64,000 nucleotides of DNA, taken from NCBI GenBank assembly GCA_000004695.1, contig CM000152.2:3968001-4032000 (forward strand). The letters are read 5' to 3'. The position numbers and the translations under genes were made by a program. Positions 8,936-58,272 of the stretch are shown here, one piece after another. Source of the stretch: Dictyostelium discoideum (taxonomy: Eukaryota). The notes under the pieces were generated by a model. That model saw only the letters and a list, made by a program, of their open reading frames with translations, was not told the DNA's origin and searched no databases. The stretch's first letter is position 1; every line of letters starts with the position of its first letter.

Positions 8936-9203
8936 TTTAAAATTAAAAAAAAGAAAAAAAAATTTTAAAATAAATAAAAAATAAAAAAAAAACTGTGATT
9001 AATTCCTTTATTTTTATTTTATTTTTTTTTGTTTAAATAAATCTGATTAAAAATTTTATTTCAAATGATTAAAAAGAATTTTTTTTATTTTTTTTATTTT
9101 TTTTTATTATAAAAAAAAGAATACTCAAAAGTTTACTATGAAAACAAAAATTAATTAATTTTTTTGTTCCTTTTAATGGGAAAAAAAAAAAGAAGGAAAT
9201 TTG

Positions 9204-9252
<49 letters not shown>

Positions 9253-9637: not shown

Positions 9638-9876
9638 ATGTCAGCAACTAAATGTGAAGAGTAAGAAATTAAAAAAAAAAAAAAATATCAAACCAAAAAA
9701 GGAAAACAAGAAAAAAATAGAAATAAAAAAAAAAAACTTTATATTTCCTTGGAAAACAAATTTTTAATTTATTAATAATTTTTTTTGAAAAAAAAAAAAA
9801 AAAAAAAAAAAAAACTTCAAACAAATGTACCAAAACAGTGTATCCACTTGAAGCCTTTTCAGTTTTAGGTTTGATG

Positions 9877-19486: not shown

Positions 19487-19520
<34 letters not shown>

Positions 19521-22500: not shown

Positions 22501-24586
22501 ATTATCTCAAAGGAAGGTCATAATTTTACAGAAGGTTGTGGTTTCATTGGTTCTAAATTAGTGGAATTAATTAATCAACAAAATAATTACAACTCAAGTA
22601 CTTGTGCCTATCAAATTAGACTTGGTGGTTCAAAAGGTGTTTTAGTATTAAATGAAAATATAGATGAAATGTCACTTCAAATTAGACCAAGTATGAGTAA
22701 ATTCGAATTGGATTACAAAAGTGGTCAATTAGATGAAGAACATAAAACATTGGAAATCGTATCGGCATCAACTACAAGTAGATGTAAACTCAATAGACAA
22801 GCCATTACATTATTATCGAATGCAGGTGTTGAAGATTCAACTTTTCTTCAAATGTTAGAGGTGGAGTTAAATCAAAACGCTCAAACATTGGTTGATGTTA
22901 ATCTTTCAAAAGAACTTTTAGGTGATTTCTTTCAACATATTACAGAATATGAACTATTCAATGATTACTATATTAGAAGTATTCTTTTAAAACTTTATAA
23001 ATCAAAGTTAATTAAAATTCAAGATAAATGTTGGATCGAAGTAAAAGAGAGTAGAAATCTATTGGGTGTTTGTGATACATCTGGTACTTTACCAGAAGAT
23101 ACTGTCTATATTGAAGTTGAAGAATTAGATCCAATCGATAATTTAATGAAACCAAAGGTTATAATTGGTAGAGTCGCAGTTTTAAAGAATCCATGTCATC
23201 ATCCTGGTGATGTTAGATTCTTGAAAGCAATTGATCATCCACCACTCAATGGTAAAAGAAATGTATTATTCTTTTCAACAAATGGTATGGTACCAAATTT
23301 CAAACAATGTTCAGGATCAGATTTAGATGGTGATAGATATTTCGTAATTTATGATCAAACTTTAATTAGAGAAGATTTAATAACTCATGAACCTTATTTA
23401 GGTGAAGAACAAACTGTAAATCCACTCATTGGTGAAGAAGATAGTGATGATGATCAATATGAAAATGATGATAATGATATTACCATTCCAACTTCAACAA
23501 CTACAAAATCAACCAATAACACTCCCACTAAACTATCGGATATTTATTTAAAAAATGTTGATAAATCAAAATTAGGTACAATTTCAAATACACATTTAGC
23601 CATCTCTGATATTGAAAAAGTTTCAAGTATAAACTCAATAAAAGTTGCAATTCAATGTGCAATCGAAGTTGACTCTGTAAAAACCTCTGTTCATGGTATA
23701 ATTCCACGTGATGTAAAATCAATACTCAAAGAGAAAGGTTATCCTCACTTTATGAAAATTAAAAATGGTTCCACTTTTGAATATAAAGGTGGCAATCAAA
23801 GAAAATATTATATCAGTGATCGTGTTATTGGTAAAATCTATGATTCTGCAGAGAATTTATTATGGTTTGGTGACTTCTTACCAGAGGCAAAAGTCGATGA
23901 ATCTTTATTGGTCCAAGGATACAAAGAGTATCTAAACCATGAAAACTTTACAACCTATATGGATTATAAATCTAAAATCAATTCAATACTTAGAAGATTT
24001 GGTGCTCAAAGTGAAGAAGATCTTTTAATTGGTTTTATGGATCCACAATTTAGTGAAAAATTATCAATTGAAGCTAAAGCTCATTTCAAATCAAACTATA
24101 ATTCAATTCAAAAACTTTTCTATCATAATTTCTTAAATGAATTTAGAAAGAAATCAAATAATAATAATAATAATAATAATAATTTATCAATGTTACAAAT
24201 TGAAGAAGAGGAAGAATTAATCAATGAAAACTATACAGAAATTGAAAAGAAAGTTTGTGCTTGGTATTTCATCTCTTATTCAGATCCTGAAAATGATAAA
24301 ACTTTAGGTTTCTATAGATCAGTTAAAGGTTTATTAAAAACTACTGAAATTAATAATTTTGAAACTCAAAAACATAATGATAAAAAACCTTTAAATTTAA
24401 GTATTCTATCTTTTGCTAAAGAAATGAAAGATACATTACTTTTTGGTTATCAAGAAAAACTTTTAATATTTGATGAAATTAAAGAAATCTTAAATGATCA
24501 TTTATTGGAAAATCAACTAAATGATCATTTCATTTTTAATTTATTATTTTCTGGTCAACAACAAAATAATAATCATCAACAAGAAG

Positions 24587-24623
<37 letters not shown>

Positions 24624-25698
24624 GCAACAACAAGAAGAAGAAGATGTAGAACAATCTAATATACCAAGTTTTTATTTATATCTACAACCTTTAGAGAATG
24701 AAATAGAAAATGAAAAACTTTTATTGGTATTAAAAGAAAAGTTGGAATCATCATTCTCAAATAATCTCTTTGAAATTATTAAAATTACATCAACTATATT
24801 AGAATTTGAATTCAAAAAAATTAAGTTTATCATTGATTTCAATTCAAATAGTTGGTATCAATCAAAAGTAATTTCTTTATATATAACTAAACATCCATCT
24901 TTAGTACCAACTTTATTAGTTATAATTGAACATATTAAAAATATATCATTACTATTAAATTCAAATAAAAATACAACAACAACAACAACAACAACAACAA
25001 CTTCAACTACTACAACAACAACAACAATAAGTTATAATAATAATAATAATATTAAAGAAAAAATTGAAAATTTTTCAATTTCACCAATTGGTTTAGTTAT
25101 TTTATTTATTAGATATGCAATTGAAAATGGTTTAATTAAGGAATTTGAAGAAAGTGATATCGAATTTGAATTATCAAATAATAATAATAATATTTATAGC
25201 TATGAAGATTTAAAAGATTTATTAAAAATAGAATGTGAAGTTGGTCAAAGTGATAATCTTCTTGGTTTCTATAGATATTACTCTGAGATTTTCCTTTTGG
25301 GTGTTTATAGTAAAAAAGAATCATTCAAATTGAAATCTTTTGGAAAATCAAGCATTGGTGTCGATAATGAAGTAACCATTACAAATGATCCTCAGCAACT
25401 TTCATTATTAAGCTCTCAATTTAAATTTGCATACAATGGAATTTGTGCAACAGTAAATGTTCATAAATTCTTGGATAGTTGTTTAATCATATCAAAGAGA
25501 TCCATTTTAATACAAATTGGTGTCGATCAAATTGATAATCTTATAAAGAATCAATTGGCCATAAGAGAATCAATCGAACTTTTAAATGTTTCCATTCAAT
25601 TCATTTATAATTCACCAAAATCTTGCACCATTGACATAAATGGTTTACCAAATCGATTAACAAAAGCTCGTGATAAAATTAGAGAGTTTCTCAAATAA
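18737..25698 (+). CDS. RNA-dependent RNA polymerase with an N-terminal Dicer-like DExH helicase domain (Dictyostelium rrpA/rrpB/rrpC[dosA] family; which paralog cannot be decided from the sequence). Exons 18737..18863 and 18968..25698. About 2285 aa.
   Basis: Exon 1 gives MSNYNNNNNNIPILKNNVKPRQYQEDAFNQCISRNTILVLPTG, donor GTATGT at 18864, acceptor TTTATAG at 18967 (phase 1). Exon 2 continues TGKTLVSIL, completing helicase motif I (PTGTGKT); motif II is FDEVHNATG (DEVH); helicase C-terminal part is QRRGRDRTCS. The eukaryotic RdRP catalytic region is GRVAVLKNPCHHPGDVRFLKAID...QCSGSDLDGDRYFVIYD (the DLDGD signature). Confidence 0.85.
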
Positions 25699-25885: not shown

Positions 25886-25958
25886 TGGAGAAGAAGGGTA
25901 TCGATCCCTTTACCTCTCGCATGCTAAGCGAGCGCTCTACCATCTGAGCTACATCCCC
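25886..25958 (-). tRNA. tRNA-Ala (anticodon AGC), 73 nt
   Basis: Minus-strand sequence GGGGATGTAGCTCAGATGGTAGAGCGCTCGCTTAGCATGCGAGAGGTAAAGGGATCGATACCCTTCTTCTCCA. D-loop AGCTCAGATGGTAGAGC; anticodon loop cTTAGCAtg; T-arm GGGATCGATACCC; G3:U70 alanine identity pair; TTTTTATT terminator immediately 3'. Confidence 0.9.
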
Positions 25959-27458: not shown

Positions 27459-27610
27459 ATAATTTAATACCCTAAGGATACAAAATTAAAAAGAAAATAT
27501 TTTTTTTTTATTTTTTTTTATCAAACAATTTTTTTTTTTTTTTATTTTTTTACCAATAAATCTAAAAATAAAAATTAAATTTTATTATGAAAAAAATAAG
27601 ATTATATTGC

Positions 27611-28786
27611 AATAATACCCCCTTTACCATTTTCTTATTTTGAATATTTTCCAGATTTGGAAATTTTTTTATGGCCATTGGATTTTACTACAAATAGTAA
27701 AAATCCCTTTTTTAATTTCAAAAAATTGAAAAATGATCGAGTATAAATTGAAAAAAAAAAAAAATAATCATTTATACAAATGTAAAAAAAAAAATAACAA
27801 ATAGAAAATAAATCTAACTCTAACAATTAAAAATGGTTCAGATAAAGTTGGCTGATAGTATAAAATATAAAAAAAAAAAAAGGGAATTACTTTAAAAAAA
27901 AATATATAACAATTTAAATCTAACTTTAATATTCTTTTTTATAAAGTAATTTTATCAAATAAAAATGGTTTCCATCAATAATGACCTAGATAATATAATA
28001 TATGAATCAATACCAATCAAATGATAGAGAAAGGAAAGATTTATCTATGCACTATATCATAAAGAATCATCATATTAATATTATTTCTAAACAAATAAAA
28101 TGAATCAATTCAAATCAAATGTCAGAGAAAGGAAAGATTTATCTATGCACTATGGCATTTTGAAAAGAAGATGATATCATTTATAAATAAATAATTAGAA
28201 ATCAAAAAACTAAAAATAAATTAAAAACTAAAAATAAATATTAAAAGGTTTAATAAAATATTTTTTTTTTCATTATTGTTTAAAATATTAATTTAATTTA
28301 TTTAAAAAAACTATTTCTTTTTAATTCTATTATTAATAAAAAATTAAAATTATTCAAATGGTTGGTTTTTATGTTTTTCAAAATAAAATTAAAATTGTAA
28401 GTTGGTAATTATTATTTTTAGGTTAAAAATTAAAATTAATTGAAATGGGGGTATTGTTATATATGATGGGTTTAGTTTTTATTTATTTCATAAATTATTT
28501 AATAATTTAATAAAAAATTGTGTGATGTGGTATATCTGAATAAAAACAAATTTGTTTATCAATTAGAAATTTCAATTTTATATAATTTTATCCGTTTTTG
28601 TATAATCTGTCAAAAATGAATATTACAAAATAAATAAAATAACATAACAAAGTATTTTGTTTTATTTGAATTTTGTGGTAACCTTTTAGACTTTGTTATT
28701 TGTAAAAAATTGGTTAATTTACAAATAAGAATAATAAGAATAATTAAAAAAAAAAAAAAAATAATAAAAAAAGTGATTTGATTTAA
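27611..28786 (+). repeat. Non-coding repeat family, copy 1 (about 1.2 kb, full length)
   Basis: Starts ..AATAATACCCCCTTTACCATTTTCTTATTTTGAATAT and ends in an A-run followed by GATTTGATTTAA. Contains an internal about 110-bp tandem duplication with the core AGAGAAAGGAAAGATTTATCTATGCACTAT, present twice. About 85% identical to copy 2 (30002..31200). Confidence 0.6.
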
Positions 28787-30001: not shown

Positions 30002-31150
30002 AATAACACCCCTTTTACCATTTTCTTATTTTGGATATTTCCAGATTTGGAAATTTTCTTTTTGGCTATTGGATTTTACTTAAAATAGTAAATTATTTTT
30101 TTTAATTTCAAATAATTTAAAAAATTGAAAAATGATCGAGTATAAATAGAAAGTTTTTTGAAAAAAAAAAAAATAATAACCATTTATACAAATGTAAAAA
30201 AAAAAATAACAAATAGAAAATAAATGTAACTCTAACAATTAAAAAGGTTTAGATAATAGTTGATTGATAGTTTAAAATATAAAAAAAAGGTAAAGCCATA
30301 AAAAAAAAAAATAATAAATAACAATTTAAATCTAACTTTAATTATATATATATATATTATAGAGTAATTTTATCAAATAAAAATGGAAAAAATTCAATTA
30401 TAATCAAGATAATATAATTTATGAATCAATACCAATCAAATGATAGAGAAAGGAAAGATTTATCTATGCACTATATCATAATGAAAGGTTGATCATCATA
30501 TTAATATTTATTCTTACCTTATAAAATGAATCAATTCAAATCAAATGTCAGAGAAAGGAAAGATTTATCTATGCACTATGGCATTTTGAAAAGAAGATTA
30601 TATCATTTATAAATAAATAATTAGAGATCAAAAAACTAAAAATAAATTAAAAAACTAAAAATAAAATTAAAAGGTTTAATAAAATATGTTTTTTTTTCAT
30701 TATTGTCTAAATTATCAATTAAATTAATTTAAAAAAACCATTTCTTTTTAATTCTATTATTAATAAAAAATTAAAATTATACAAATCGTTTATTTTTATG
30801 TTTTTCAAAATAAGTTGGTCATTTTTTATTATTTTTGGGTTAATTGAAATGGATGTATTGTTATATATTCGATGGGTTTATTTTTTATTATTTCATTACC
30901 ACCATAAATTATTTTAATTATTTAATAATTAATAAAAAATTGTAAAATGTGGTATGTCTAAATAAAAACTAATTTTTTTATCAATTAGAAATTTCAATTT
31001 TATGTATTTTTATCCGTTTTTGTATAAACTGTCAAAAACGAATATTTACAAAATATATAAAATAACAAAACCAAGTATTTTGTCGTTTGAATTTTGTGGT
31101 ACCTTTTTGACTTTGCCTTTTTTAAAAAATTGGTTAATTTACAATAAGAA

Positions 31151-37342: not shown

Positions 37343-38768
37343 ATGGGATCAAATAATATAAATTATGAAGATTATAATGGATCAACCATATTTACATCAT
37401 CACATTTATTAGAGGATAGTATGAATGATAATGATATTTATCAACCATTAACAGAGTCAAACTTTTATAAAATTTATGAAAATCATTTATCATCAGTTCC
37501 AAAAAAAAGATGTATGTTATCAAATAAATATATATATATATATATATATTTTATAATTAAAACTCATGCATCAAATTATTAATTTTAATTTTTATTTTAT
37601 TAGTTGTTTATTTATTTCCAGTTTGGTTAGAAGAGAAATTAAAAGTTTTTGATGATCCAATAATTAGGTTATGCCAAAGTTATACTGGTAAACCAATGTA
37701 TTATTTTAGTTTATTTATAACGGCATTAGTTTCTGTAGAGATTGCAATGATAGCACCATTTTTTTTATATATTTTGGGACAGGATACATTGGCGACCGAG
37801 TTTACCTATTTAGCATTGTTATTGTCATTGGTTTCACAGATACCTAAACGATTTTTATGGAGATTTAGACCCTACATGGTGAAGAGAGCAAAAACCGTAA
37901 AGAAGGATATGACCTCTTCTTTCCCATCACGTGCCGTAACGTGTGCGGTAGTGTATAGCTATGCAATCATTTGGATAGTGACCTACTATGACGATTATGA
38001 TATTACAGTGGTACGATGGTGGATGCCATTGTTATTTATAGGTTCAATTTTATTATCAAGTTTTGCACGTATCAACCTCGGTGTACACTATCCCTCCGAT
38101 TGTGTTGGTGGTGTCATTCAGGGTACATTGGTTTGTGTGATTGGTACAGCTTTTAGAAAGATCGATATATTAGGTTGTCGTTCTTGTTGGGATGAAATGT
38201 GTTATGCTCCAATTAATTCGGCTCAAGAAATCACTTTCTCGCATTTGAACCGTTTGAATTTCATAATGTTGGTGGCCTTGTTATTGATATTTTTAATTAT
38301 ACCAATCGTTTCCGTTATGAAACCTGTCGATTTTTGGTCAAAATGTGATCGTGTTTATGGTATGCTTTTCCCTGCTATAGCTTTTCAATTATTATTACTT
38401 TGCCCAAGTTCTTATCGTCTAAATGGTTCCTTATCAAAACCTTCCACACCTCATTGGTATTCTTTTGTTTTTGGTGGAATTTTAGCTTTATGTGCAACTG
38501 TAAGTGTTTTTATTAATTTATTAATTTATTTTATTTATTTATTTATTTATTTATTTGTTTCTCTAATAATTATTAATCATAATTTTTTTTATTTTTTTTA
38601 TTTTTTTTATTTTTTTTATTTTTTTTATTTTTTGGATAATCCATAATTAATCAGTTAATACCAGCAAAAACAAAAATACCACCAAAGTATTCAATTGTAA
38701 CTTTTTGGATATTATTTTTATCATTATCAATTTCCTTATTTTCTTGGCGTTTATCTCAAATAGGTTAA
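37343..38768 (+). CDS. PAP2-superfamily (type 2 phosphatidate phosphatase / lipid phosphate phosphatase-like) membrane protein. Exons 37343..37511, 37622..38499, 38655..38768.
   Basis: PAP2 motif 1 KRFLWRFRP (KxxxxxxRP). Motif 3 SFARINLGVHYPSDCVGGVIQG (SRxxxxxHxxxD). Motif 2 reads SFPSRAVT where PSGH is expected. Multiple TM helices. Donors GTATGT (37512) and GTAAGT (38500); acceptors ..TTTCCAG (37620-21) and ..AATCAG (38653-54). The start was chosen as the first in-frame ATG in an A-rich context; the upstream low-complexity in-frame stretch 36782..37342 lacks an ATG. Confidence 0.7.
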
Positions 38769-39756: not shown

Positions 39757-41126
39757 ATGGATCCAACAACATCATTCCCAAAAGATAAAATTAAAATTTT
39801 ATTATTAGAAAATATTCATATTGCAGCAATTAAACAATTCGAGGAACAAGGTTTTCAAGTAAGTAAAATAAAAATAAATAAAAAGTTAAACAAATAAGTT
39901 TATTATAATTTATTAATTTTTTTTTTTTTTCCTAATTTTCATTTTTTTTTTTTTTTTTTTTGGTTTAAATTAAATTTTTAATTTAAACAATTTTTTTTTT
40001 TTTTTTGGATTTTTTTTTTTTTTTGTTTAAATAATTATTTTTTTTAGGTTGAATCAATTTCATCATCATTACCAGAAGATAAAATAATTGAAAAGATTAA
40101 AGATGTTCATGTATTAGGATTAAGAAGTAAAACTAAAGTTACAGAAAAGATATTATCAGAAGCCAAAAGATTATTAGCAATCGGATGTTTTTGTATTGGT
40201 ACAGATCAAGTTGATTTAATTGAAGCAGAGAAAAGAGGTGTACCAGTTTTTAATTCACCATTTTGTAATAGTCGTTCAGTAGCAGAGTTGATAATTTGTG
40301 AAATCATTACACTTTCAAGAAAATTAGGAGATAGATCAACTGAGATGCATAATAAAATTTGGAGAAAGGAGTCGGCCAATTGTCATGAAATTCGTGGTAA
40401 AACATTAGGTATCATTGGTTATGGTCATATTGGTAGCCAATTATCAGTATTGGCAGAGGCAATGGGCATGAGTGTACTCTACTACGATATCGCCCGTCGT
40501 CTTCCATTGGGTAATTCTAAAATGTGTCCAGATATGAAAACACTATTGGAGAATAGTAATTTCGTCACTTTACATGTACCAGATACAAAAGAAACCGTTG
40601 GTTTAATTGGTGAAGAGGAGATTAATACCATGAAAAAGGGAAGCTACCTTTTGAATGCTTCACGTGGTAAAGTAGTTCAAATTCCACATCTTGCAAACGC
40701 TTTAAGATCTGGTCATTTGGCTGGTGCCGCTGTTGATGTTTATCCAGAGGAGCCAAGTGCAAATTGTAAAGATTGGGAATGTGAACTCCAAAAATGTCCA
40801 AATACAATTTTAACTCCACATATTGGTGGTAGTACTGAAGAAGCCCAAGAAGCAATCGGTTTAGAAGTTAGTGATCTCATCGTTCAATTCATCAATAGTG
40901 GTGCATCTGCTGGTTCTGTCAATTTCCCTGAAATCGCTTTACCAGTTTCACCTTCAACTCACCGTATTCTTAATATTCATAATAACAAACCTGGTGTTTT
41001 AAGAGTAATTTAAATTATTTTTAATTTTCTTTTTTTTTTTCTTTTTTTAATAATCTATTTATTTATCTATCTATTTATCTATCTATTTATTTATTTATTT
41101 ATCTATCTATCTTTCTCCTTCCATCC

Positions 41127-41656: not shown

Positions 41657-43765
<2,109 letters not shown>

Positions 43766-44100
43766 TTTGGAGTGAATATAATATAAAAAGTTTTTTTTTT
43801 TTTTTCAGTGGGAAAAAATACTAGAAGTTTTTTTTTTTTTTTTTAAAAATTAAAAAGTGGAATTACTTTGAGTATTTTTTCCCCGCACTGTTTTTTTTTT
43901 TAAAAAAAAATTTAAAAATCCAAAAAATATCGAAAGTCTTTCCATTTTATTTTTGATTTTTTTTTTAATGGCGCAAACAAAGCCAAAAAAATAAAAACAA
44001 ACGATTTGTATAATTTAAATTTTTTATTAATAATAGAATTAATAAAGAAATAGTTTTTTTAAATAAATTAAATTGATATTTTAAACAATAATGAAAGAAA

Positions 44101-44491
44101 ATATATTTTATTAAACCTTTTAATTTTTATTTTTAGTTTTTAATTTATTTTTAGTTTTTGATTTATAATTATTTATTTATAAATGATATCATCTTCTTTT
44201 CAAAATGCCATAGTGCATAGATAAATCTTTCTTTCTCTGACATTTGATTTGAATTGATTCATTTTATTTGTTTAGAAATAATATTTAAATGATCAACCTT
44301 TCTTCATGATATAGTGCATAGATAAATCTTTCCTTTCTCTATCATTCGATTGGTATGTATTCATATATTATATTATCTAGATTATAATTAAATGTAAACC
44401 ATTTTTATTTGATAAAATTACTTTATAAAAAATAATATTAGAGTTAGATTTAAATTGTTATTTATTTATCTATTTATTTATTTGTTTTTTT

Positions 44492-44534
<43 letters not shown>

Positions 44535-44828
44535 ATCACTTTACCTTTTTTTTATTATACTTTTAACTGTCAATCAACTTTTATCTAAACCTTTTTAATT
44601 TTTAGAGTTAGATTTATTTTCTACTAGTCTTTTTTTTTTTACATTTGTATGAATGATTATTTTTTTTTTTTTTAAAAAAAGTTTCTATTTATACTTGATC
44701 ATTTTTCAATTTTTTAAATTATTTGAAATTAAAAAAAGGAAATTTTACTATTTAAAGTAAAATCTAATAGCCAAAAAGAAAATTTCCATATCTGGAAATA
44801 TTCAAAATAATGAAAATGGTAAAAGGGT
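44101..44828 (-). repeat. Non-coding repeat family, copy 3 (partial, about 730 bp, inverted relative to copies 1 and 2)
   Basis: The reverse complement of 44101..44828 matches the first about 750 bp of copies 1 and 2 (ACCCTTTTACCATTTTCATTATTTTGAATATTTCCAGATATGGAAATTTTC...), including both GAGAAAGGAAAGATTTATCTATGCACTAT cores. Confidence 0.6.
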
Positions 44829-44868
44829 ATTAATTTAATATATTCTTAGTTTTCTTAATAAAATTTAT

Positions 44869-44914
<46 letters not shown>

Positions 44915-45015
44915 TAAACAATTAAACAATTAAATTTGAGAAATAAAAAAATAATAATGATTTATTTAAAAAATTTGATTAATGGATTTAACTCGCAGAC
45001 AATTGTGAGAGATCA

Positions 45016-46101
45016 CTATGTATTAAATGTGCATTGGGGCACATTTGGTTGAATTAAATTCTTATTGTCGTATGATACATTTAAACAGTATAAGCTATTC
45101 TCTTTTAAGGCCAAAATAACTTCAGCAATATTTTGATCTGTGAACCTTAATAATTTATTTTGATTTTTTTTATAAGATTCACCACCTATTGTAAAATGAT
45201 TACCGAAATGGGGGAACAAATCGTTATCGTCATAGCTTTGAGCAGTATTAACAAAACGATTCCCATGTAGTTGAGAATTTCTAAATTGTTTCACCAAGAA
45301 AATGCTAGAGGGATCATTTGTTTCTTTAATGGTAAGGACAACTTGAAAACCACCACTTCTATCATATTCACTTGGTTTATTAGGGTTATGTGATCTTCCA
45401 GCCTTGAAATAATTGGAAAGTAAAAATAATTTATAAAAGCAGAGGCCAGCTATTTTACATTCCACACCATCAATTTTTCTAGCTATTGCTATTACTTCAC
45501 CTGATTTTGGAGGTTCGACTCTGTGTGGTTTCCCAACAAACTTAATCTCTGGTAGCGCCAGACTATAAATGTTTGGTTGGGGTCTAGGTTTTTTGTTTTT
45601 GCGATGACAACCATCGCCATCAGCTCGTTTACAACCTGTAATCGAACACTCTATGGTGACACTATTACCATAGCTAATTTTATAACCATTTAATTTTGTT
45701 TCAAAGCGATAGTAACGAAGCTTTTGAACAGAAAAATCTTTATTTGGTTCTATTGAAAATTTACCACCTTCAAACGAGATATCTTTTGGTTTTACGATCT
45801 TTGCAGTTATTTGTTCTACTGAATCTAAATCGGTTGACACAAAGAAAGTGAGTGTACTTGAATCTGTTAGTTGACTCTTAATCGGATTCCACCTCGAATC
45901 ATAAATTGTTAATTCATTGGTTGAGCCAAGCACTTGCCCATGGCCAAAGAAGGATCTTGAACTTTCTTCTAATTGTTGATTGCTAAAACCGGCCTTTAAG
46001 AGCTTCTTTTTAATACGTGATGAATAAGCATTTGCAAACTCGTCAAAATCAATACTCCATTGTATTAAATTACCTTCACCATTGGTAATTGGGATACCCA
46101 T
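45016..46101 (-). CDS. Unknown-function ORF, at least 362 aa from the first in-frame ATG. The frame stays open about 150 codons further upstream without an ATG. Codon usage is atypical for the host.
   Basis: Long ORF with no recognisable motif: MGIPITNGEGNLIQWSIDFDEF...SITGCKRADGDGCHRKNKKPRPQPNIYSLALPEIKFVGKPHRVEPPKSGEVIAIARKIDGVECKIAGLCFYK...YDDNDLFPHFGNHFTIGGESYKKNQNK...CTFNT*. It is enriched in codons Dictyostelium normally avoids (CCG, GCG, CTG, CGC, CGA, GGG, GGC, CCC, GTG, TCG, AGG). The far N-terminal F-rich part of ORF 45016..46560 is a translation of poly-T and is probably not coding. Confidence 0.45.
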   Translation of the reverse strand: MGIPITNGEGNLIQWSIDFDEFANAYSSRIKKKLLKAGFSNQQLEESSRSFFGHGQVLGSTNELTIYDSRWNPIKSQLTDSSTLTFFVSTDLDSVEQITAKIVKPKDISFEGGKFSIEPNKDFSVQKLRYYRFETKLNGYKISYGNSVTIECSITGCKRADGDGCHRKNKKPRPQPNIYSLALPEIKFVGKPHRVEPPKSGEVIAIARKIDGVECKIAGLCFYKLFLLSNYFKAGRSHNPNKPSEYDRSGGFQVVLTIKETNDPSSIFLVKQFRNSQLHGNRFVNTAQSYDDNDLFPHFGNHFTIGGESYKKNQNKLLRFTDQNIAEVILALKENSLYCLNVSYDNKNLIQPNVPQCTFNT

Positions 46102-46777
46102 CTCCTCAAGACCTAATGGAGGAGGAATAGGAGTAATTTCCTTTGAACGTGAGGTTGTATCTTCATTATTATTATTATTATTAACGACACCATCATTTCT
46201 TGAAAAGGTTTCCGTGGGCAAGCAAACTCGGACTATGGTCTCTAAATTTTCATCATTACTACTTTTCTTTTCTGAGACATCCTCAGGGCAATTATTTACT
46301 AAATTAAAATTATTTTTTGAAAAAAAAAAAAAAAAAAAATTTTTGTTATTTACTAAATTATTATTATTTTTTGAAAAAAAAAAAAAATAAAATAAAAAAA
46401 AAAAAAAAAACCTACTCATTCTTTTCACAAATCGGAAATTAAAAATAAAAAATAAAAATTTAATTATTAAAAATAAAAAATAAAAAAATTTAATTATTAA
46501 AAATAAAAAACAAAAAAAAAAAAAAAAAAAATAGGTGCAAAAAAAAAAAATACCATACAAATTTTGAGTTGAATATTTTTTTAAAATAAAAAAAAAAATT
46601 AATATTTTTTAAAATAATCATTTATTATTTTCTTTAAATAATAAAATATATATTTTATATTTCAATAAATTATTTTTTTATTTGGTCAAAAAAAAAAAAA
46701 AAAAAATTGACAAATTTAATATTCAACTGTTCTAATGATATATAATTTCTAGTAATTTTTGATTTATAATCATCAAA

Positions 46778-46850
46778 GGGGATGTAGCTCAGATGGTAGA
46801 GCGCTCGCTTAGCATGCGAGAGGTAAAGGGATCGATACCCTTCTTCTCCA
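46778..46850 (+). tRNA. tRNA-Ala (anticodon AGC), 73 nt; sequence identical to the copy at 25886..25958 but on the opposite strand
   Basis: GGGGATGTAGCTCAGATGGTAGAGCGCTCGCTTAGCATGCGAGAGGTAAAGGGATCGATACCCTTCTTCTCCA followed by TTTTTATT. Same AATCATCAAA 5' flank as the first copy. Confidence 0.9.
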
Positions 46851-46878
46851 TTTTTATTCCAATTAAATTTAGATCAAG

Positions 46879-46890
46879 TGTTCAATTTCT
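46879..46890 (+). promoter_or_regulatory. Candidate ex-B box 29 nt downstream of tRNA-Ala. It overlaps the target-site duplication of the TRE3 insertion.
   Basis: GTGTTCAATTTC, same spacing as the ex-B of the first tRNA-Ala. Additional GTTCAA-containing units (GAATTGTTCAAAATCT, twice) resume after the retroelement at 50131..50200. Confidence 0.45.
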
Positions 46891-46891
46891 T

Positions 46892-49800
46892 CACCTTTTC
46901 AAATAAATAAACATAAGAAAAGATGGATATTATCACCTGGTACTGCAAATGACCATGAAGCAATCAATATTATCAATCATTTAATAACTAATCACAATAA
47001 CACATCAATCAATCAATTTACAAATTGGTCAAAAGTAAAATCAAAAATTATTAAAACTCTAAAAAACTATCAATATAACAAAGACAAACAAACTCAACGT
47101 GCAAAACAAATACTATTAGAAAAAGCAGCAAAATTCAAACATCTTGAAGAACAATGCATCGCTGAATACAATATTATATGTAACAAAAACAAATTACATC
47201 AAAACCACACAAACATATTAAAAAAACATATAAATGGAGAAATACCTAGCAAGTATCTATCAGCAATACTAAACAAAAGATCAAAAGATGCAAAAATTGA
47301 ATCAATCCAATGTGGTAACATCATTACATCCGACCCCGACCAAATTGAAAATGTGTTTGTTGAATTCTACACAAATCTATATAGCTTACAAATATGTTGT
47401 CCAATTACTCACCAGCTCATGCTAAACACATGGCCAATTATAAAAAATGAATATTGGAATGGTTTAGACTCACCATTTATACAAGATGAAGTTGAAGCTG
47501 CAATTAAAACCTGTAACCCCAACAAATCACCCGGTCCAGATGGCGTTACAAATGCATTCTACATTAATCATTTAAACCAAGTTAAACCAATTCTCACTAC
47601 ATTATTCAACGATATACTAGAAAATCCTCACCACATCACAACAGAATTCACCGAAGGTCTTATACACACAATATACAAGAAAGGCAACCCCTTACTCATA
47701 TCAAATCGTCGTCCCATTACACTTCTTAACACTGATTACAAGATCCTCTCAAAAGTAATCAATGCACGTCTTCTGAGAATACTTCCTTTCATCATCAACA
47801 ACAACCAAACTGGTTTCGTACCCCACAGATTCATCATAGACAACATCATCAACATCAACGAATTAATAAACTACCTCAAATCTAAAAACCTCCCTGGTAT
47901 CATCACACTATTTGACTTCTTTAAAGCATTTGATTCTATCTCTCACAATAGCATTAAAAGAACATTAATTCATATTGGAATACCAATAAAATTAATAAAT
48001 TTAATCCACAAGCTATTATCTGACTCACAAGCAAAAATTTCAATTAATGGTAAAACGACCAGAAAATTCGATATTAAAAGAGGTGTAAAACAAGGTGACC
48101 CAATCTCAGCCACTTTATTTGTAATTGTAATTGAAATATTAGCAAGAACAATAAATGCAGACAATTCAATAATTGGATTACCAGTTTCACCCAATCCACA
48201 AATTAATATCAAATTTACCCAATTTGCAGACGACTCTACAACATACAACATCAACTACGAACAACAACAACAATCAATCAAACATTTCGATAATTTCTGC
48301 GCTTCAACATCATCATCTTTAAATTTTGACAAAAGTGCAATAATAGAAATCAACCCCCACAAAATCGCTGATAAACACATAATAAACAACATTCCACAAT
48401 CAAAAAGAATTCCAATAACCAAAAAAGATCAATCAGAAAGAGTTCTTGGCTATTTCTTTAATCATAATGGTTTACATAGGAAATTACCCGAAACAATGAA
48501 AACACTGATTAAATCATTAGTGCTATGGAAAACTAGTGGTACAACATTAAAAACAAAAACAACCATCATAAACACCTACTCACTATCACCAATAACATAT
48601 TTATCATACCTTGAAGAATTTACAAAAGATGAAGAAATTCAAATTAATAAATTAATCTCATGGTTTATGAATTCTCCCGCAAATTCTGAATCACCAACTC
48701 TCAATACCAATTCCATTGAAAACAACACATCAACCATCCATTCACGTGCAAAAATACCTTTGATGTGTTATGATAGATCATTAAAACCATTAAAAGAAGG
48801 TGGTTGGGGTATGTGGAATATACAATTACGACAAGTTGCTCAAAAGATTTGGATATACAACAGATTTTTACTAATGCATAAATCTGCAAACAATTCAATA
48901 TACATGATAAGTTGGATGGATCAAATCATCAACAAATCAATCTCTTCTCCATACCTTATAAAAATCAAAAAAGAATGGGAAAACTATGCAACTCAAATTG
49001 GACATCTAAAAGATAAAGTTCAAATCCTACAACCAATATTAACAAAAAACCAACCCTCTCAAACATTAAACACAAATAATATTTCACTACCACCAACACT
49101 CAAAGAAATCTACTCGACAATACTAAACAATCACCAATGCAAATCAAAAGACTATATTGGCAAGAAATATTCAGATCTACTTCTTACTTCGCACCAACAA
49201 TCAATACAACTATTATGGAAATACACATACGACCAACTTTTTGTCAAAATTCAAAAATTAAAAGATCCAAAAGGCCGAGATACAATGCAAAGATTCCATG
49301 CTAGATGTCTTCCGATTAATCATCTACACAACAAAGTTTGCCCCATTTGCAACAATGAAATGAATAATGATCCCTATGGTCATTTGTTTTTCAATTGTCA
49401 GCACACAATCAACTTCATTAACCACGACAAATTAAAATATTTTATATATAAAAATTGCAATGGAAACAAAAACTGGTCACTAACAAAAAACCAAACAACA
49501 AAATTATACACACTCATCTATAAACCACAAACAAACAACAAAGCATTTAAACCAGATCCAACTATCAATATTAATTTTCATTTTGCAGAAAACGCACAAT
49601 ATAAAAAATACAGGTTCAACTGGAATTATATAAACACAAATCTTGATCTAGTCAGAACACATGCATATTGGAACATAATCTCATTAGTTATTCACCAAAT
49701 ATGGATATGGTTATGCAAATCATTATTTGATATCAATATAACTCAATCAATTGACAATTGGAACAACCAAATAAACAACACAACACTAGATTATGATATA

Positions 49801-50130
49801 TTAAAATCAAAATGGCACAAGCTAATAAGATTGGAATATTCAAGAACATTATCAAACTTTAACCAATACTCAATTAAAAACAACCTCACAAAAACTCAAA
49901 AAGAAACCCAATGGTCCGAAACCATCAAAAAATTTAAAAAAGAATGGAGCATAAACACAAATGAACCAATTCCAACAATTACACCACCAATTAATTATTA
50001 ATTACCTAATCTAAAATAACATACCATTTTATATTCACAAAAACTAAAAAACCTAAAATAAATAAATAAAAATAACATACTAATTGTATACTATAATAGT
50101 TTATTTATATCAAAAAAAAAAAAAAAAAAA
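46892..50130 (+). mobile_element. 5'-truncated TRE3-type (tRNA-gene-targeted, L1-clade non-LTR) retrotransposon inserted about 40 bp downstream of tRNA-Ala, same orientation as the tRNA. It ends in a 23-nt poly(A) and is flanked by a 14-15 bp target-site duplication.
   Basis: TSD AGTGTTCAATT(T)CTT at 46877..46891 and 50131..50144. The internal ORF (46905..50001) carries the tail of the AP-endonuclease (RWILSPGTANDHEAI, matching L1 EN SDHSAI), the linker region (..IENVFVEFYTNLY) and the reverse transcriptase (KSPGPDGVTNAFY.., RPITLLNTDYKILSKVINARL, LFDFFKAFDSISH, KRGVKQGDPISATLF, QFADDSTTY). C-terminal Cys/His motif CPICNNEMNNDPYGHLFFNCQHT. Poly(A) at 50108..50130. Confidence 0.75.
46905..50001 (+). 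CDS. ORF2 fragment (C-terminal end of the endonuclease, reverse transcriptase, Cys-rich tail) of the TRE3-type retrotransposon
   Basis: See the mobile_element entry. The frame is continuous from 46905 to the stop at 49999-50001. Confidence 0.75.
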
Positions 50131-50654
50131 AGTGTTCAATTCTTGAATTGTTCAAAATCTACACCGCTTTTAGGTAAAAAAAAAAAAGAATTGTTCAAAA
50201 TCTGCAATTGTAATAAAGCCCAGTAAAATAATAGATAATTATTTTTTTTTTTTTTTTAGAGTGATTTGTTCTTGAGTGGTTTGGTTTATATGGTTAATTA
50301 ACTAATAATAATAATAAATAATTTATTTAATTTTAAATATCAACATATTTAAAAAAGGATATTTAAAAAAAATAATAATAATAACAATACTATATTTTAA
50401 AATAAAAATTCATAAATCAACCATTAATTTTTTTTTTTTTCCTTTAATGTATGGCACTGATTAATCAATATTCAAAAAAAAAAAAAAAAAATCTATCCTT
50501 GACTCCTCTTCATTCCATCAATTCATTTGAAAAAAAAAGTTTAAACTTATAAAATTTATTACAAAATTAAAATTGATTAAATTGAGTAAACTAGTGTCGT
50601 ATCCATCCTGTAACTTTAATTTAAATTTTAATAAAATATTATTTGATTTTATTT

Positions 50655-52360: not shown

Positions 52361-54888
52361 TTAAATTACGACTGGGTATGATGATGCAGTGGCTAATTAT
52401 AAAAGGTATTATTTTAAAAATAAATGTTAGATTGTGAGTAATAAATTAGTAAACAAAAAATTATAATACTTACCAATTCCACATTTATCGCCAGTATTTC
52501 TTCTCATTCTAAAGTATCCTTTTTCACCTGTGATATTTATCATAATTTTGGAAAATAAAAAGAAAAATTAAAAAACAATATATAAAATTAGTATAGTAGT
52601 AAAAATGTGTTTTAAAAATTTTTTTTATCTTTTTTTTTTCTTACCCCATCCGTCGCCCCATGAATTCTAAAAGAATGAAAATAAATAAAAAAAGTGTTAG
52701 TAAAAGATTAATGAAAAAATTTAAATAGGACAGAGAATGATATATTTTACTTTTATAATCCAAAAGTCAACCCCATTTTCAATACCATATCCAACTACAA
52801 CAACAGCATGAGTGGTTCTATATTTATCACAACTGTCACTGTTGTAAATGCCACTTGAATAATACATAAATTCTCTTGTCGATGCATCATAAGCAACTGA
52901 AACAGGACCCACTGAAGCAACTGCATTTGCTAAGTCCTCTTCATCATGTTGTTTAATCATAACATAGTTTGAAATTCTTGATTGTGCATCTCCACTATTA
53001 TAACGACATAGTCCAACTCTGCCTTCATAAGGATAAGTACTTTGGAGATTAATTCCACCATTTTCTTTTATATATCTAAAACAATTATGCATCCTTTTTT
53101 TAAAAAAAATAAATTGTTGTTAATATCCATTACTACATTAATTTTAAATACAATAGTAGTAGTTTAATTAAAGTTTATTAAAATCAAAAATAACATACCA
53201 TCCTCCACTACATTCACCATTTCCATAATTTCTGGTGCAATCAACTAAATTTTGTTCAGAAAGGTTTAACATTCTATTATTCTTTCTATAATAATGGGCT
53301 TCTAGTGCACCAACTGTACTAAATGCATAACAACTTCCTATAATAATTATTTTTAAATAAAATTAGAACTTTATGGTAATGGAATATAATTAATTATATA
53401 TTTAAACTTACCGCAACTGCCTTGATTTTTAACTTTGCTCACCATACCCCAGGTTCTCCAATCAATTGAGATTGGTCTCGACCATTTTAATAATCTTGAT
53501 TTTGATGGTTCATCAGTGGTAATATTTGATGATGATGATGACGATGATTCTTGACAAACTTTGTTAACTGATAATAATGGATTAATTGAATATGCTTTTT
53601 GAATATATCCAAATGTGTGTGATGATCCGACTTCGATGCTGTTTTTCCAATTTGGTAGTGTGAATGTATTATTTGATAATGTTTGAATTTCCCAAATACT
53701 TTGAATATCATTTAATTCGAATGTATATGATTGAATTATTGATTGACCAATATTTGTAATTATTGTTTCTACTTGAATATAATCTTGATTATTTTCTCTC
53801 CAAGAACTTGTAATAGTTTGTGTTACATTTGCATTGCATGATGAAGTTGGTGTGGTTGGTGTTGGTGTTGGTAATTCATCACATGTTGATGTTTCGTCAG
53901 TGAGTGGTGTTGTTTGATTTGATTGTTGAATATATCCAAAACTATGAGACGATCCTGATGAAATATTGCCAACCCAATTTGGAAGTTGATAGCTATTACT
54001 TGATAATGTTTCAACTTCCCAAATGCTAATGATATTATTTAATTTGAATGAAAATGAACGAATTGTTGTTGGTCCATTGTTGGTAATTATTACTTGTACT
54101 TGAGTAAAGTCTTGATTACCATCATTCCATGAGTTTATAATAGTTTGAGTAATATTAACTGAGCATGGACTATTTGATGGTGTAGTTTCATTTAAATTAA
54201 ATTCATATAATTTACTTGTATATATATTTAAAAATTCGTCATGAGTCATATCAGAGAATTGAGTTAGACCAAGTTCCATAGTTGAATTTTGATTTTCTCT
54301 CTTGTATTGTTCGATGAATCTACTGCTATCTTTGAATGCTTCATATTTTAATAAGAATTGATCGGCTCTGTAAGTTCTATTGAATTGATTTGACCATTGA
54401 ATAAATGAATTTTGATATTCAAGTTCTCTTTTTCTACAATCTTTACCATATCTACCAAATATACAACCACAGATATCACGGCCATCATGGTGATGATGGT
54501 GACCATGATTATGAAGTCTTTTAGCATTTTCTTCATTATTTTCATTATCATTATTGCTATCATTTGATATATCGCCACCACTACCATCAATATCACTACC
54601 TAATGAATCACTATCATTTTCACTATTATTATTATTAATATTAAAACCTTTGCATCTATTTGCTTTATCATCTTGAATATCATCTAATTCTTTGTGAGGT
54701 TGATGTTCATGGTCATGATTATGATTATTTTTAATTATTACTTTAACAGTAATTTCATCACCTTGATCTTTTACTTTTGTATTTACTTTGATATCGTAAT
54801 CATCATTATCATGTTTACATAATGAAAATGTAAACAATGAACTAAATAATAAAAATATTATTAAAACAAATAATATACTAACTTTCAT
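52361..54888 (-). CDS. Papain-family (C1A) cysteine protease precursor with an unusual layout: signal peptide, His-rich stretch, I29 propeptide, 2x about 95-aa CBM49-like carbohydrate-binding repeats, then the catalytic domain. Copy B, six exons (minus): 54888..53412, 53337..53199, 53093..52751, 52666..52645, 52527..52474, 52392..52361. About 688 aa.
   Basis: I29: [68 protein letters not shown]-like repeats: [80 protein letters not shown] and [80 protein letters not shown]. Catalytic domain across exons: [22 protein letters not shown]|[30 protein letters not shown]|[24 protein letters not shown].......[20 protein letters not shown]|NSWGDGWG|[17 protein letters not shown]|[10 protein letters not shown]. 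All donors GTAAGT/GTATGT/GTAAAA/GTAAGA and all acceptors ..AG were read on the minus strand, with phases consistent. Confidence 0.75.
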
Positions 54889-55738: not shown

Positions 55739-58272
55739 TTAAGCTACGACTGGGTATGATGATGCAGTGGCTAATTATAAGAGGTATTGTTTAGAAATAA
55801 ATGTTAGTTTTGTGAGTAATAATTTAGTAAGAAAAAATTAAATTAATACTTACCAATTCCACATCTATCGCCAATATTTCTTCTCATTCTAAAGTATCCG
55901 TTTTCACCTGTGATATTTATCATAATTTTGGAAAATAAAAAAAAATTAAAAACAATATATAAAATTAGTATGGTAGTAAAAATGTTTTTTAAAATTTTTT
56001 TATCTTTTTTTTTTTCTTACCCCATTTGGCGCCCCATGAATTCTAAAAGGATGAAAAATAAATAAAAAAAAGTGTTAGTAAAAGATTAATGATAAAATTT
56101 AAATAATAGGACAGAGAATGATATACTTTACTTTTATAATCCAATAGTCAACCCCATTTTCATTATCATATCCAACTACAACAACAGCATGAGTGGTTCT
56201 ATATTTATTACAATTGTCACTGTAGTAAATACCTCTTGAATAATACATAAATTCTCTTGTCGATGCATCATAAGCAACTGAAACAGGACCCACTGAAGCA
56301 ACTGTATCTGCTAAGTCCTCTTCATCATGTTGTTTAATCATAACAAATTTTGAAATTCTTGATTGTGCATCTCCACTATTATAACGACATTGTCCAAATT
56401 TGCCTTCATAAGGATAAGTACTTTCCTGATTAATTCCACCATTTTCTTGTATATAGCTATAACAATTATGCATCCTTTTTTTTAAAAAAATAAATTGTTG
56501 TTAATATCCATTACTACATTAATTTTAAATACAATAGTAGTAGTTTAATTAAAGTTTATTAAAATTAAAAATAACATACCATCCTCCACTACATCCACCA
56601 TTTCTATATTTATTACTAGCGGTGCAATCAACTAAATTTTGTTCAGAAAGGTCTAACATTCTATTATTCTTTCTATAATAATGGGATTCTAATGCACCAA
56701 CTGTACTAAATGCATAACAACTTCCTATAATAATTATTTTTAAATAAAATTAGAACTTTATGGTAATGGAATATAATTAATTATATATTTAAACTTACCG
56801 CAACTGCCTTGATTTTTAACTTTGCTCACCATACCCCAGGTTCTCCAATCAATTGAGATTGGTCTCGACCATTTTAATAATCTTGATTTTGATGGTTCAT
56901 CAGTGGTAATATTTGATGATGATGATGACGATGATTCTTGACAAACTTTGTTAACTGATAATAATGGATTAATTGAATATGCTTTTTGAATATATCCAAA
57001 TGTGTGTGATGATCCGACTTCGATACTGTTTTTCCAATTTGGTAGTGTGAATGTATTATTTGATAATGTTTGAATTTCCCAAATACTTTGAATATCATTT
57101 AATTCGAATGTATATGATTGAATCATTGATTGGCCAATATTTGTAATTATTGTTTCTACTTGAATATAATCTTGGTTATTTTCTCTCCATGAACTTGTAA
57201 TAGTTTGTGTTACATTTGCATTGCACGATGAAGTTGGTGTGGTTGGTGTTGGTGTTGGTAATTCATCACATGTTGATGTTTCGTCAGTGAGTGGTGTTGT
57301 TTGATTTGATTGTTGAATATATCCAAAACTATGAGACGATCCTGATGAAATACTGCCAACCCAATTTGGAAGTTGATAGCTATTACTTGATAATGTTTCA
57401 ACTTCCCAAATGCTAATGATATTATTTAATTTGAATGAAAATGAACGAATTGTTGTTGGTCCAATGTTGGTAATTACTACTTGTACTTGAATAAAGTCTT
57501 GATTACCATCATTCCATGAGTTTACAATAGTTTGAGTAATATTAACTGAGCATGAACTGTTTGATGGTGTAGTTTCATTTAAATTAAATTCATATAATTT
57601 GCTTGTATATACATTTAAAAATTCGTCATGAGTCATATCAGAGAATTGAGTTAGACCAAGTTCCATGGTTGAATTTTGATTTTCTCTCTTGTATTGTTCG
57701 ATGAATCTACTGCTATCTTTGAATGCTTCATATTTTAATAAGAATTGATCGGCTCTGTAAGTTCTATTGAATTGATTTGACCATTGAATAAATGAATTTT
57801 GGTATTCAAGTTCTCTTTTTCTACAATCTTTACCATATCTACCAAATATACAACCACAGATATCACGGCCATCATGGTGATGATGGTGAACATGATTATG
57901 AAGTCTTTTAGCATTTTCTTCATTATTTTCATTATCACCATTGCTATCATTTGATATATCGCCACCACTACCAATCTCACTATCTAATGAATCACTACCA
58001 TCCACATTATTATTATTAATATTAAAACCTTTGCATCTATTTGCTTTATCATCTTGAATATCATCTAATTCTTTATGAGGTTGATGTTCATGGTCATGAT
58101 CATGATTATTTTTAATTATTACTTTAACAGTAATTTCATCACCTTGATCTTTTACTTTTGTATTTACTTTGATATCATAATCGTCATTATCATCATGTTT
58201 ACATAATGAAAATGTAAACAATGAACTAAATAATAAAAATATTATTAAAACAAATAATATACCAACTTTCAT
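55739..58272 (-). CDS. Papain-family cysteine protease precursor with 2x CBM49-like repeats, copy C (tandem paralog about 3.39 kb from copy B, about 95% identical). Exons (minus): 58272..56799, 56724..56580, 56474..56132, 56042..56021, 55907..55854, 55770..55739.
   Basis: Same exon/intron structure as copy B at an offset of +3387 (exon 1) or +3381 (later exons). Exon 2 is 6 nt longer (..[20 protein letters not shown] vs ..[18 protein letters not shown]). Exon 4 encodes NSWGAKWG (NSWGDGWG in B). Catalytic Cys (GSCG|SCYAFS) and His ([11 protein letters not shown]) are intact. The C-terminus is ..[10 protein letters not shown]. Confidence 0.75.

Follow-up and report, generated by a model that had tools for sequence, protein, structure and literature searches.

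A minus-strand open reading frame at positions 45016-46560 of a 64,000-nucleotide stretch of Dictyostelium discoideum contig CM000152.2 (hereafter the window, meaning the whole stretch analysed) raises the question of whether it belongs to a tRNA-targeting retrotransposon, was acquired from a foreign donor, is open by chance, or is an ordinary host gene. The region had looked transposon-like because a tRNA gene that serves as a retroelement landing pad is close by. The evidence presented below makes it very probable that the frame is a vertically inherited, single-copy chromosomal host gene of D. discoideum, and neither a retrotransposon remnant nor foreign DNA. The gene has been annotated previously as hypothetical protein DDB_G0281075 (UniProt Q54UH6); full-text literature search retrieved no papers mentioning either identifier.

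The translation of exon 2 in the window matches NCBI protein ACTFIT_011242 (428 aa) with 100% identity; this protein falls in one 90% protein cluster with DDB_G0281075 / Q54UH6 of strain AX4. The open frame is present as first described, spanning 45016-46560. Its coding appearance is confined to 45016-46298, and the remainder of the frame corresponds to poly-T/poly-F read-through of an intron and the 5′ flank. The predicted gene structure and its immediate surroundings are as follows.

45016..46298, minus strand: exon 2 of DDB_G0281075, encoding residues 2 (partly) to 428 and including the TAG stop at 45018-45016.
46299..46415, minus strand: spliceosomal intron of 117 nt, AT-rich, phase 1, GTAGGT...TTTAG, placed by comparing the sequence with the annotated protein MINNCPEDV...
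46416..46419, minus strand: coding part of exon 1, 4 nt (ATGA, the start codon and the opening base of codon 2), lying in a conserved block.
46292..46392, minus strand: tandem duplication with a period of 54 nt, copies 46392-46346 and 46338-46292, 47 nt each, with 3 mismatches.
46420..46777, no strand assigned: divergent spacer of 358 bp separating the tRNA gene from the start codon, presumed to hold the promoter and 5′ UTR.
46778..46850, plus strand: tRNA-Ala(AGC) gene, a divergent neighbour and not part of the protein gene (ARAGORN; Rfam 58.1 bits).

Apart from the tRNA, an Rfam scan of 43500-47500 detected nothing. The initial annotation had taken an ATG at 46101, about 600 bp from the tRNA gene, as the first one of the frame. 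That placement was not borne out, as coding continues to 46298 and would be spliced to the ATG at 46419. By contrast, its suggestion that a host gene might have a 5′ exon hidden in the poly-T region proved right: three other genomes share the ATGA found here at 46419-46416 and the GT...AG intron that follows it. Those genomes are the divergent D. discoideum-complex isolates L002 and L003 and D. dimigraforme (L001), which together with the window were compared throughout. In the window, L002 and L003, the block gtgaaaagaATGAgt around the mini-exon stands out as a conserved island from A/T sequence of low complexity. The counterpart introns begin with GTAAGT in L002, GTGGGT in L003 and GTAAGT in D. 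dimigraforme, and in all four genomes the conserved reading frame is reached only through a GT...AG intron that immediately follows ATGA. The two isolates and D. dimigraforme have kept the very small first exon as well as the phase of the intron. We infer splice-site choice and transcription of DDB_G0281075 from these sequence comparisons: the pre-mRNA would lose the 117-nt intron, joining the 4-nt exon ATGA to the long second exon to give a 428-aa product.

The tandem duplication next to the start of exon 2 had also been noticed and suspected of duplicating a splice acceptor, and both observations held. What is duplicated is a T-run with the 3′ splice site (TTTAG) and, after it, the opening 7 nt of exon 2. 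The 446-aa AX4 model (DDB_G0281075 / Q54UH6) relies on the upstream acceptor, which is in frame (18 codons), whereas the downstream acceptor yields the 428-aa model (ACTFIT_011242). The two public models thus differ because the duplication doubles the splice acceptor, and the 18 extra residues of the AX4 model (NNKNFFFFFFSKNNFNLV) are translated from intron-like A/T sequence. Since L002 and L003 carry a single copy of the unit and lack the duplication, sequence comparison favours the shorter, 428-aa model as the ancestral form.

The gene occupies the same position in every genome compared. The tRNA-Ala(AGC) gene and the target diverge, an FNIP-repeat gene follows in the same orientation as the target, and serA converges on it; this order is identical in L002, L003 and D. 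dimigraforme. With PAP2 included, order and orientation of tRNA-Ala, the gene, the FNIP gene, serA (encoding a 2-hydroxyacid dehydrogenase) and PAP2 are kept in all three. Downstream of the gene in the window lies a 1.25-kb spacer and then the host FNIP-repeat gene, which is likewise the next neighbour in the three other loci, and the same tRNA-Ala(AGC) is found at the same relative position in each. The gene is single copy, with one in the window and one per compared locus, and only 4 protein clusters were found in 5.8 billion, each on one contig. Thus, the dictyostelid homolog, the conserved synteny and the intron-containing 5′ end by which the initial annotation proposed to recognize an ordinary host gene were all found.

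In D. dimigraforme, the annotated model is probably wrongly fused to the neighbouring FNIP gene. A single transcription unit with that gene was considered and rejected: the D. dimigraforme frame ends in two stops right after the conserved C-terminus, and the conserved ...QCTFNT stop that ends the D. discoideum-complex genes also opposes a fusion.

Sequence conservation of the product is limited in both degree and taxonomic range. Ortholog identities are 81%, 78% and 39%, as compared to 98-100% for serA and 95-99% for PAP2. Searches of about 15 billion proteins returned no credible homologs beyond the D. discoideum-complex isolates and D. dimigraforme; more distant dictyostelids and other eukaryotes yielded none in protein database searches. 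Outside D. discoideum and its closest relatives the family is undetectable, and it evolves faster than its neighbours. The frame is intact in all four genomes even though the distance to D. dimigraforme amounts to a dS of about 1.0-1.2. Over that distance dN/dS is 0.41-0.50. Within the discoideum complex it reaches 0.63-0.80, and two of the three comparisons there fall significantly below 1 (p = 0.016 and 0.03). The protein is under purifying selection, and the constraint is weak; values near 0.7 among close isolates are compatible with a very relaxed constraint.

The first reading to be weighed against a host gene is that the frame is a remnant or domesticated ORF1 of a TRE5-type non-LTR retrotransposon inserted head-to-head upstream of tRNA-Ala. 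TRE5 elements integrate about 50 bp upstream of tRNA genes (PMC3159450, PMC5006619), with their 5′ ends pointing toward the tRNA gene's 5′ end (PMC3159450). The gene shares with TRE5-A/B/C ORF1 its location upstream of a tRNA gene, the facing 5′ ends and codons that are G+C-richer than the host average, its GC3 (0.25) and rare-codon use approaching those of the TRE3 RT ORF of the window (0.28). The absence of a sequence match is weak counter-evidence, as TRE ORF1 proteins are mutually dissimilar (PMC5006619), with an identity of only 25% between TRE5-A and TRE5-B. In addition, the tRNA-Ala site is a proven landing pad: a TRE3-type element lies downstream of it in this strain, and an LTR-type element lies 10-68 bp upstream of it in L002. 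The adjacent tRNA gene, in other words, acts as a target for incoming retroelements.

The orientation proposed in the initial annotation was correct, the two 5′ ends facing each other as described for TRE5, but the proposed insertion was not. The distance from start codon to tRNA gene is 358 bp rather than about 50 bp, and the whole spacer, 46420-46777, is colinear over its full length with that of the insertion-free isolate L003; the L002 version is broken only at 10-68 bp from the tRNA, by the LTR-type insertion. Because this insertion sits between the tRNA and the gene, the gene lies outside the integration window. The arrangement of gene and tRNA is the ancestral layout and not an insertion. 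No ORF2, endonuclease or RT is found behind the gene, where the host FNIP-repeat gene comes next in all four genomes. A TRE5 element would be expected to be dispersed, multi-copy and intronless, whereas the window and each compared locus hold one copy of the gene, which has a conserved 5′ spliceosomal intron. An intact ORF with dN/dS of 0.4-0.5 across dS >1 rules out a decaying remnant, and a profile search of 1.84 billion representatives returned no transposon protein. The gene thus differs from TRE5-A/B/C ORF1 in its orthologous position across species, in purifying selection and in that no similarity was found to any protein outside its four-member family. Conserved synteny, the intron, the single copy, the lack of an RT ORF and the distance of 358 bp led us to reject the TRE5 ORF1 reading, to which we attach a very low probability.

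In an older version of this scenario, a tRNA-targeting retroelement would have had its ORF1 domesticated long ago to give the present gene, or the gene would be some other factor linked to the neighbouring Pol III gene. This version outlasts the tests above, since the divergence among TRE ORF1 proteins is too great for sequence comparison to decide and the product gave no confident fold; we regard it as a long shot all the same. If it were true, the factor would have stood head-to-head with tRNA-Ala(AGC) since before the split of D. discoideum and D. dimigraforme, and its transposon-like codons and fast evolution would be the mark of a continuing conflict with the TRE and DGLT elements that keep arriving there.

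For the preferred reading, a host gene, the codon usage has to be accounted for. The enrichment in host-avoided codons reported initially was confirmed: the 11 listed rare codons make up 29 of 426 codons (6.8%), the highest share of all ORFs in the window, against 7.7 expected for a protein of this amino-acid composition if synonymous codons were chosen as in the 15 other host ORFs of the window (pooled host frequency of rare codons 1.4%; binomial p = 5.5e-12). GC3 is about 0.25 (0.246, against 0.128 expected). The claim that the frame is G+C-richer than every other coding sequence in the window did not hold, as the serA ORF fragment has a G+C content of 0.371 versus 0.343 for the target, and the GC3 values of PAP2 (0.262) and the TRE3 RT ORF (0.284) equal or exceed the 0.248 of the target; serA has 0.227. 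Codon usage lies nearer to that of the host than to that of the TRE3 RT ORF, by +0.092 log-likelihood per codon. The elevation is common to the orthologs, with GC3 of 0.228, 0.227 and, in D. dimigraforme, 0.206; in the D. dimigraforme locus, the matched segments of the FNIP gene stand at 0.12 and 0.15. These data indicate that the raised G+C and the rare codons belong stably to the gene, fall within the upper tail of the range among host genes, and do not betray a foreign or transposon origin.

The same composition had suggested horizontal acquisition from a bacterium, a virus or another G+C-richer donor whose codon usage was retained. An excess of rare codons, a GC3 about twice the host expectation, the lack of homologs in more distant dictyostelids or other eukaryotes, and a lone weak match to a bacterial PKD-repeat protein (E = 1.7e-5) are in keeping with such a transfer. 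However, no credible donor homolog was present among the roughly 15 billion proteins, in which only Dictyostelium proteins were found, and the PKD match did not withstand either hhalign or Pfam. The gene carries a conserved spliceosomal intron, and host genes, namely PAP2 and serA, reach the same GC3. Composition decaying toward that of the host would not be expected to leave the D. dimigraforme ortholog at its present GC3 at dS >1. Along two polarised branches, 22 GC→AT changes were counted versus 39 AT→GC, so that there is no excess of GC→AT and no amelioration; the neighbouring FNIP gene shows the same trend (AT→GC 31 versus GC→AT 12). Because there is no outside homolog and the G+C is not decaying, horizontal transfer is unsupported, and we consider it highly improbable.

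The lack of a placeable motif stood up to more sensitive searches. Scanned against Pfam, the ORF and all four members of the family gave sub-threshold hits only (Interfer-bind, E = 0.03; AfaD, E = 0.15), and protein and profile searches of PDB sequences gave no match below E = 0.16. AlphaFold2 models built from the four sequences were unusable, with pLDDT of 38 for the full-length alignment and 46 for region 64-228, and Foldseek searches of the PDB with these low-confidence models returned no match below E = 0.04. In the exhaustive search with the profile, 1.84 billion representatives yielded a single addition, the bacterial PKD-repeat protein, its E value being summed over 6 stretches. Membership in the PKD / Ig-like beta-sandwich class was examined and rejected: hhalign against the 19 aligned repeats of that protein gave a probability of 22.8% over 43 columns, Pfam gave no PKD match, and the structure models had low confidence.

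Some features of the product can be proposed. It appears to be soluble, with neither a signal peptide nor a membrane segment: Kyte-Doolittle hydropathy peaks at 1.26 over 19 residues, and the N-terminus is hydrophilic. An Asn-rich N-terminal stretch, approximately residues 1-65, is modelled with very low confidence and is probably disordered. Secondary-structure tendency and conservation point to a beta-rich region at about 70-225, and the short basic Lys/Arg/Pro linker after it, CHRKNKKPRPQ, may act as a nuclear localisation signal. Conservation is highest in the C-terminal region, about 248-420. Our best guess from secondary-structure tendency and conservation is a non-enzymatic binding or scaffold protein.

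That the frame is merely open by chance or decaying, as a pseudogene or annotation artefact, would fit the lack of a domain, of literature and of a confident structure, and the dN/dS of 0.63-0.80 among close isolates, which for the window versus L002 is not significantly below 1 (p = 0.18), but it is scarcely credible given a 427-codon frame open in four A/T-rich genomes (genome G+C about 22-25%) despite more than 1 synonymous substitution per site, 134 invariant columns in the four-sequence alignment, dN/dS of 0.41-0.50 to D. dimigraforme, and conservation of both the start context and the intron.

As a host gene, DDB_G0281075 resembles orphan fast-evolving genes in its restricted taxonomic range and its lack of a known domain, and nothing sets it apart from this general class; recent birth from A/T-rich intergenic DNA would give the opposite of its G+C-richer codons. 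The strain-specific 54-nt duplication of the 3′ splice site accounts for the 18-residue disagreement between the public models, a matter of annotation hygiene. The neighbouring tRNA-Ala gene is found in three states according to the isolate: with a TRE3-type element downstream, with an LTR-type element upstream, or with no insertion seen within about 50 bp on either side. The gene itself provides a clean example of a fast-evolving gene of a few close species that carries unexplained G+C-rich rare codons in an extremely A/T-rich genome.

The minus-strand ORF at 45016-46560 proposed in the initial annotation is present as a mechanical ORF. Its coding appearance is limited to the 3' 1.28 kb, with a G+C content of 0.32-0.38 versus 0.08-0.2 in the flanks, and its 5' 260 nt are poly-T/poly-A low-complexity sequence, open by chance. 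Searched against 5.8 billion protein clusters, the product had four matches, all from Dictyostelium: a 428-aa D. discoideum protein with 100% identity, two homologs with 81% and 78% identity, whose source isolates carry the labels D. discoideum and D. cf. discoideum, and a D. dimigraforme protein with 41% identity. The 90% cluster containing the 428-aa protein includes the AX4 reference DDB_G0281075/Q54UH6 (446 aa), so an annotation of the gene, as a hypothetical protein, already exists. Neither identifier was found in the literature searched. The annotated protein starts MINNCPEDV, so that the DNA must supply ATG plus A, a donor GTAGGT, a 117-nt intron and exon 2. Exon 1 was placed from the annotated protein start, and the intron and exon 2 by comparing DNA with the annotated protein:

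46419-46416, minus strand: exon 1, coding part (ATG plus A), then donor GTAGGT
46415-46299, minus strand: intron of 117 nt, 3' end TTTAG
46298 to the stop at 45016, minus strand: exon 2

The coding start had been put at a "first ATG" at 46101; this was incorrect, as 46101-46298 is also coding, in frame and conserved in all four genomes. In two other isolates of the D. discoideum complex (loci L002 and L003), gtgaaaagaATGAgt forms a conserved island within the A/T-rich leader, with a GTAAGT donor in L002. Exon 1 of the D. dimigraforme ortholog is ATGAGCAACA, followed by a GTAAGT donor, and its longer intron ends before TAAATAAT..., in the same phase and position as in the window. Of the alternatives initially offered, the one borne out is a host gene whose 5' exon was hidden: ATG plus A is joined by an intron to exon 2, and this arrangement is conserved in relatives.

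The tandem duplication noticed initially is real. It consists of two 47-nt copies (46392-46346 and 46338-46292) with three mismatches between them and a 54-nt period, and it went unreported by Tandem Repeats Finder. As proposed, it duplicates the splice acceptor, each copy containing a T-run, a TTTAG acceptor and the first 7 nt of exon 2. As 54 nt equal 18 codons, either acceptor keeps the reading frame. The AX4 model Q54UH6 (446 aa) uses the upstream acceptor and so gains an odd insert, NNKNFFFFFFSKNNFNLV, from 18 codons of the duplicated, intron-like stretch; the insert is absent from the newer-assembly model (428 aa), where the downstream acceptor is used. L002 and L003 have a single copy of the 47-nt unit, indicating that the duplication is specific to this strain lineage and that the 428-aa model reflects the ancestral gene. 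The predicted 428-aa form is supported over the 446-aa one by these isolates without the duplication.

The neighbourhood of the gene comprises:

46778-46850, plus strand: tRNA-Ala(AGC), divergent from the gene
41657-43765, same strand as the gene: FNIP-repeat gene, downstream
40288-41013, strand opposite to the gene and FNIP: 2-hydroxyacid dehydrogenase (serA) gene
37696-38646: PAP2 gene

In L002, L003 and the D. dimigraforme locus, the ortholog likewise has a divergent tRNA-Ala(AGC) upstream and, downstream, a same-strand FNIP gene, an opposite-strand serA-type dehydrogenase and PAP2. All three thus hold a syntenic homolog with an intron-containing 5' end, the feature initially named as the mark of an ordinary host gene. 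The spacer between tRNA and gene is colinear with L003 end to end; in L002 the sole break in colinearity is a 4.1-kb insertion located 10-68 bp upstream of the tRNA. The 3' spacer up to FNIP measures 1250 bp in the window versus about 600 (L002) and 365 bp (L003), and includes a ~0.9-kb dispersed repeat copy (43985-44905).

This copy makes up most of the extra spacer length. The repeat, A/T-rich and ~0.85-0.92 kb long, has three copies in the window that are 82-84% identical; that at 43985-44905 is inverted relative to those at 27529-28378 and 30010-30805, and is likely the "inverted repeat copy" of the initial annotation. The two upstream copies carry a small repeated ORF (MLELDLFSICYFFFYICIN...). 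In D. dimigraforme, a 583-aa protein model (P0004, L001 10001-13164) joins the ortholog to the N-terminal part of the adjoining FNIP gene and removes an in-frame Lys-rich stretch by splicing. The genomic frame reads ...SYDNERLKDQSELIQFFFKI and then two stops right after the conserved C-terminus, making the fusion a probable artefact of a chimeric model.

Retroelements are found around the tRNA. Directly downstream lies a reverse-transcriptase ORF (47353-50001; Pfam RVT_1, E = 7.5e-31) of an element that, judged by position, is a TRE3-type non-LTR element. It spans about 46908-50530 on the plus strand, begins ~57 bp downstream of the tRNA and looks 5'-truncated; L003 has no such element at this site, and its colinearity with the window picks up again near 50532-50616. 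The L002 insertion (5602-9729), located between tRNA-Ala and the ortholog, codes for a 674-aa gag-aspartyl-protease protein, identifying it as an LTR-type element at a site where tRNA-targeting elements land; it also has a 105-aa ORF (9184-9501), and the ortholog stays outside it. DGLT-A-type LTR elements reportedly land in the position that this insertion occupies. A second tRNA-Ala(AGC) (25886-25958, minus strand) lies ~190 bp past the 3' end of an oppositely oriented gene (18925-25698, plus strand) encoding a 2257-aa helicase plus RNA-dependent RNA polymerase (E = 9e-126); beside this tRNA the window showed no retroelement ORF.

TRE5 elements choose sites ~50 bp upstream of a tRNA gene and insert with the 5' end toward the tRNA 5' end (PMC3159450, PMC5006619), a placement initially ascribed to the gene. 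Its orientation agrees with this; its distance does not, the start codon lying 358 bp from the tRNA. Also against a TRE5 ORF1 remnant are the lack of an ORF2 behind the gene, its single copy in the window and at each locus, its conserved spliceosomal intron and its maintenance in place as an intact ORF over a dS of about 1.0-1.2 with dN/dS 0.41-0.50; these findings exclude a decaying one. That the gene descends from a TRE ORF1 domesticated long ago could be entertained since TRE ORF1 proteins reportedly lack mutual resemblance (PMC5006619), yet it is highly improbable. Horizontal acquisition was not upheld either, no donor homolog being found among the 5.8 billion clusters or 1.84 billion representatives: besides the gene's own family, an exhaustive profile search of the latter turned up a single bacterial protein with PKD repeats (E = 1.7e-5, summed across six short stretches), discarded because profile-profile comparison with its repeats gave 22.8% probability over 43 columns and Pfam found no PKD domain in the product.

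The codon usage that had suggested a foreign origin is in part as described. The 11 codons named as rare occur 29 times versus 7.7 expected from the amino-acid composition of the product and the synonymous usage of 15 other host ORFs, and GC3 is 0.246 versus 0.128 expected. The gene is not GC-richer than every other CDS, since the serA fragment reaches a G+C of 0.371 against its 0.343; GC3 values of 0.262 (PAP2), 0.227 (serA) and 0.284 (TRE3 RT ORF) also show that it is not unique, and in codon usage it resembles the host set more than the TRE3 ORF. The elevation is common to the orthologs (GC3 0.228, 0.227 and 0.206); two matched FNIP-gene segments of the D. dimigraforme locus have 0.12 and 0.15. 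Polarised substitutions on the window and L002 branches (22 GC-to-AT versus 39 AT-to-GC) revealed no G+C decay, much like those of FNIP (12 versus 31). Such an AT-to-GC excess in both genes, in small counts, is unexpected for so A/T-rich a genome. Absence of decay and elevation in orthologs indicate that the gene's composition, which lies in the upper tail for host genes, is stable. The initial observation was mostly right, and its transposon and foreign-gene interpretations wrong.

Elsewhere in the window, tandem pairs encode 287-aa class-I methyltransferases (14008-14871 and 15103-15966, plus strand) and ~505-aa ORFs (53371-54888 and 56758-58272, minus strand) in which a cathepsin propeptide (I29) accompanies two CBM49 domains; these ORFs are parts of cysteine-protease genes.

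The product of the host gene has no signal peptide and no membrane segment (maximum hydropathy 1.26). Its regions are:

Residues 1-65: Asn-rich, modelled with very low confidence
Residues about 70-225: predicted beta-rich with two helices, followed by a basic linker, CHRKNKKPRPQ
Residues about 248-420: best conserved, with motifs LPEIKFVG, GGFQVVLTIKE, LVKQFRNS, DLFPHFGNHFTIGGESY and LNVSYDN

Protein identity to the window in L002, L003 and D. dimigraforme, respectively:

Target gene: 81%, 78%, 39%
FNIP: 90.5%, 89%, about 51%
serA: 99.6%, 100%, 98%
PAP2: 99%, 98.5%, 95%

Comparisons within the discoideum complex give a dN/dS of 0.63-0.80, and dS versus L002 and L003 (0.095-0.176 over 45016-46296) is higher than for FNIP (0.040-0.055) by a factor of two to three. 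DDB_G0281075 is a fast-evolving gene, confined to a few close species and under weak purifying selection.
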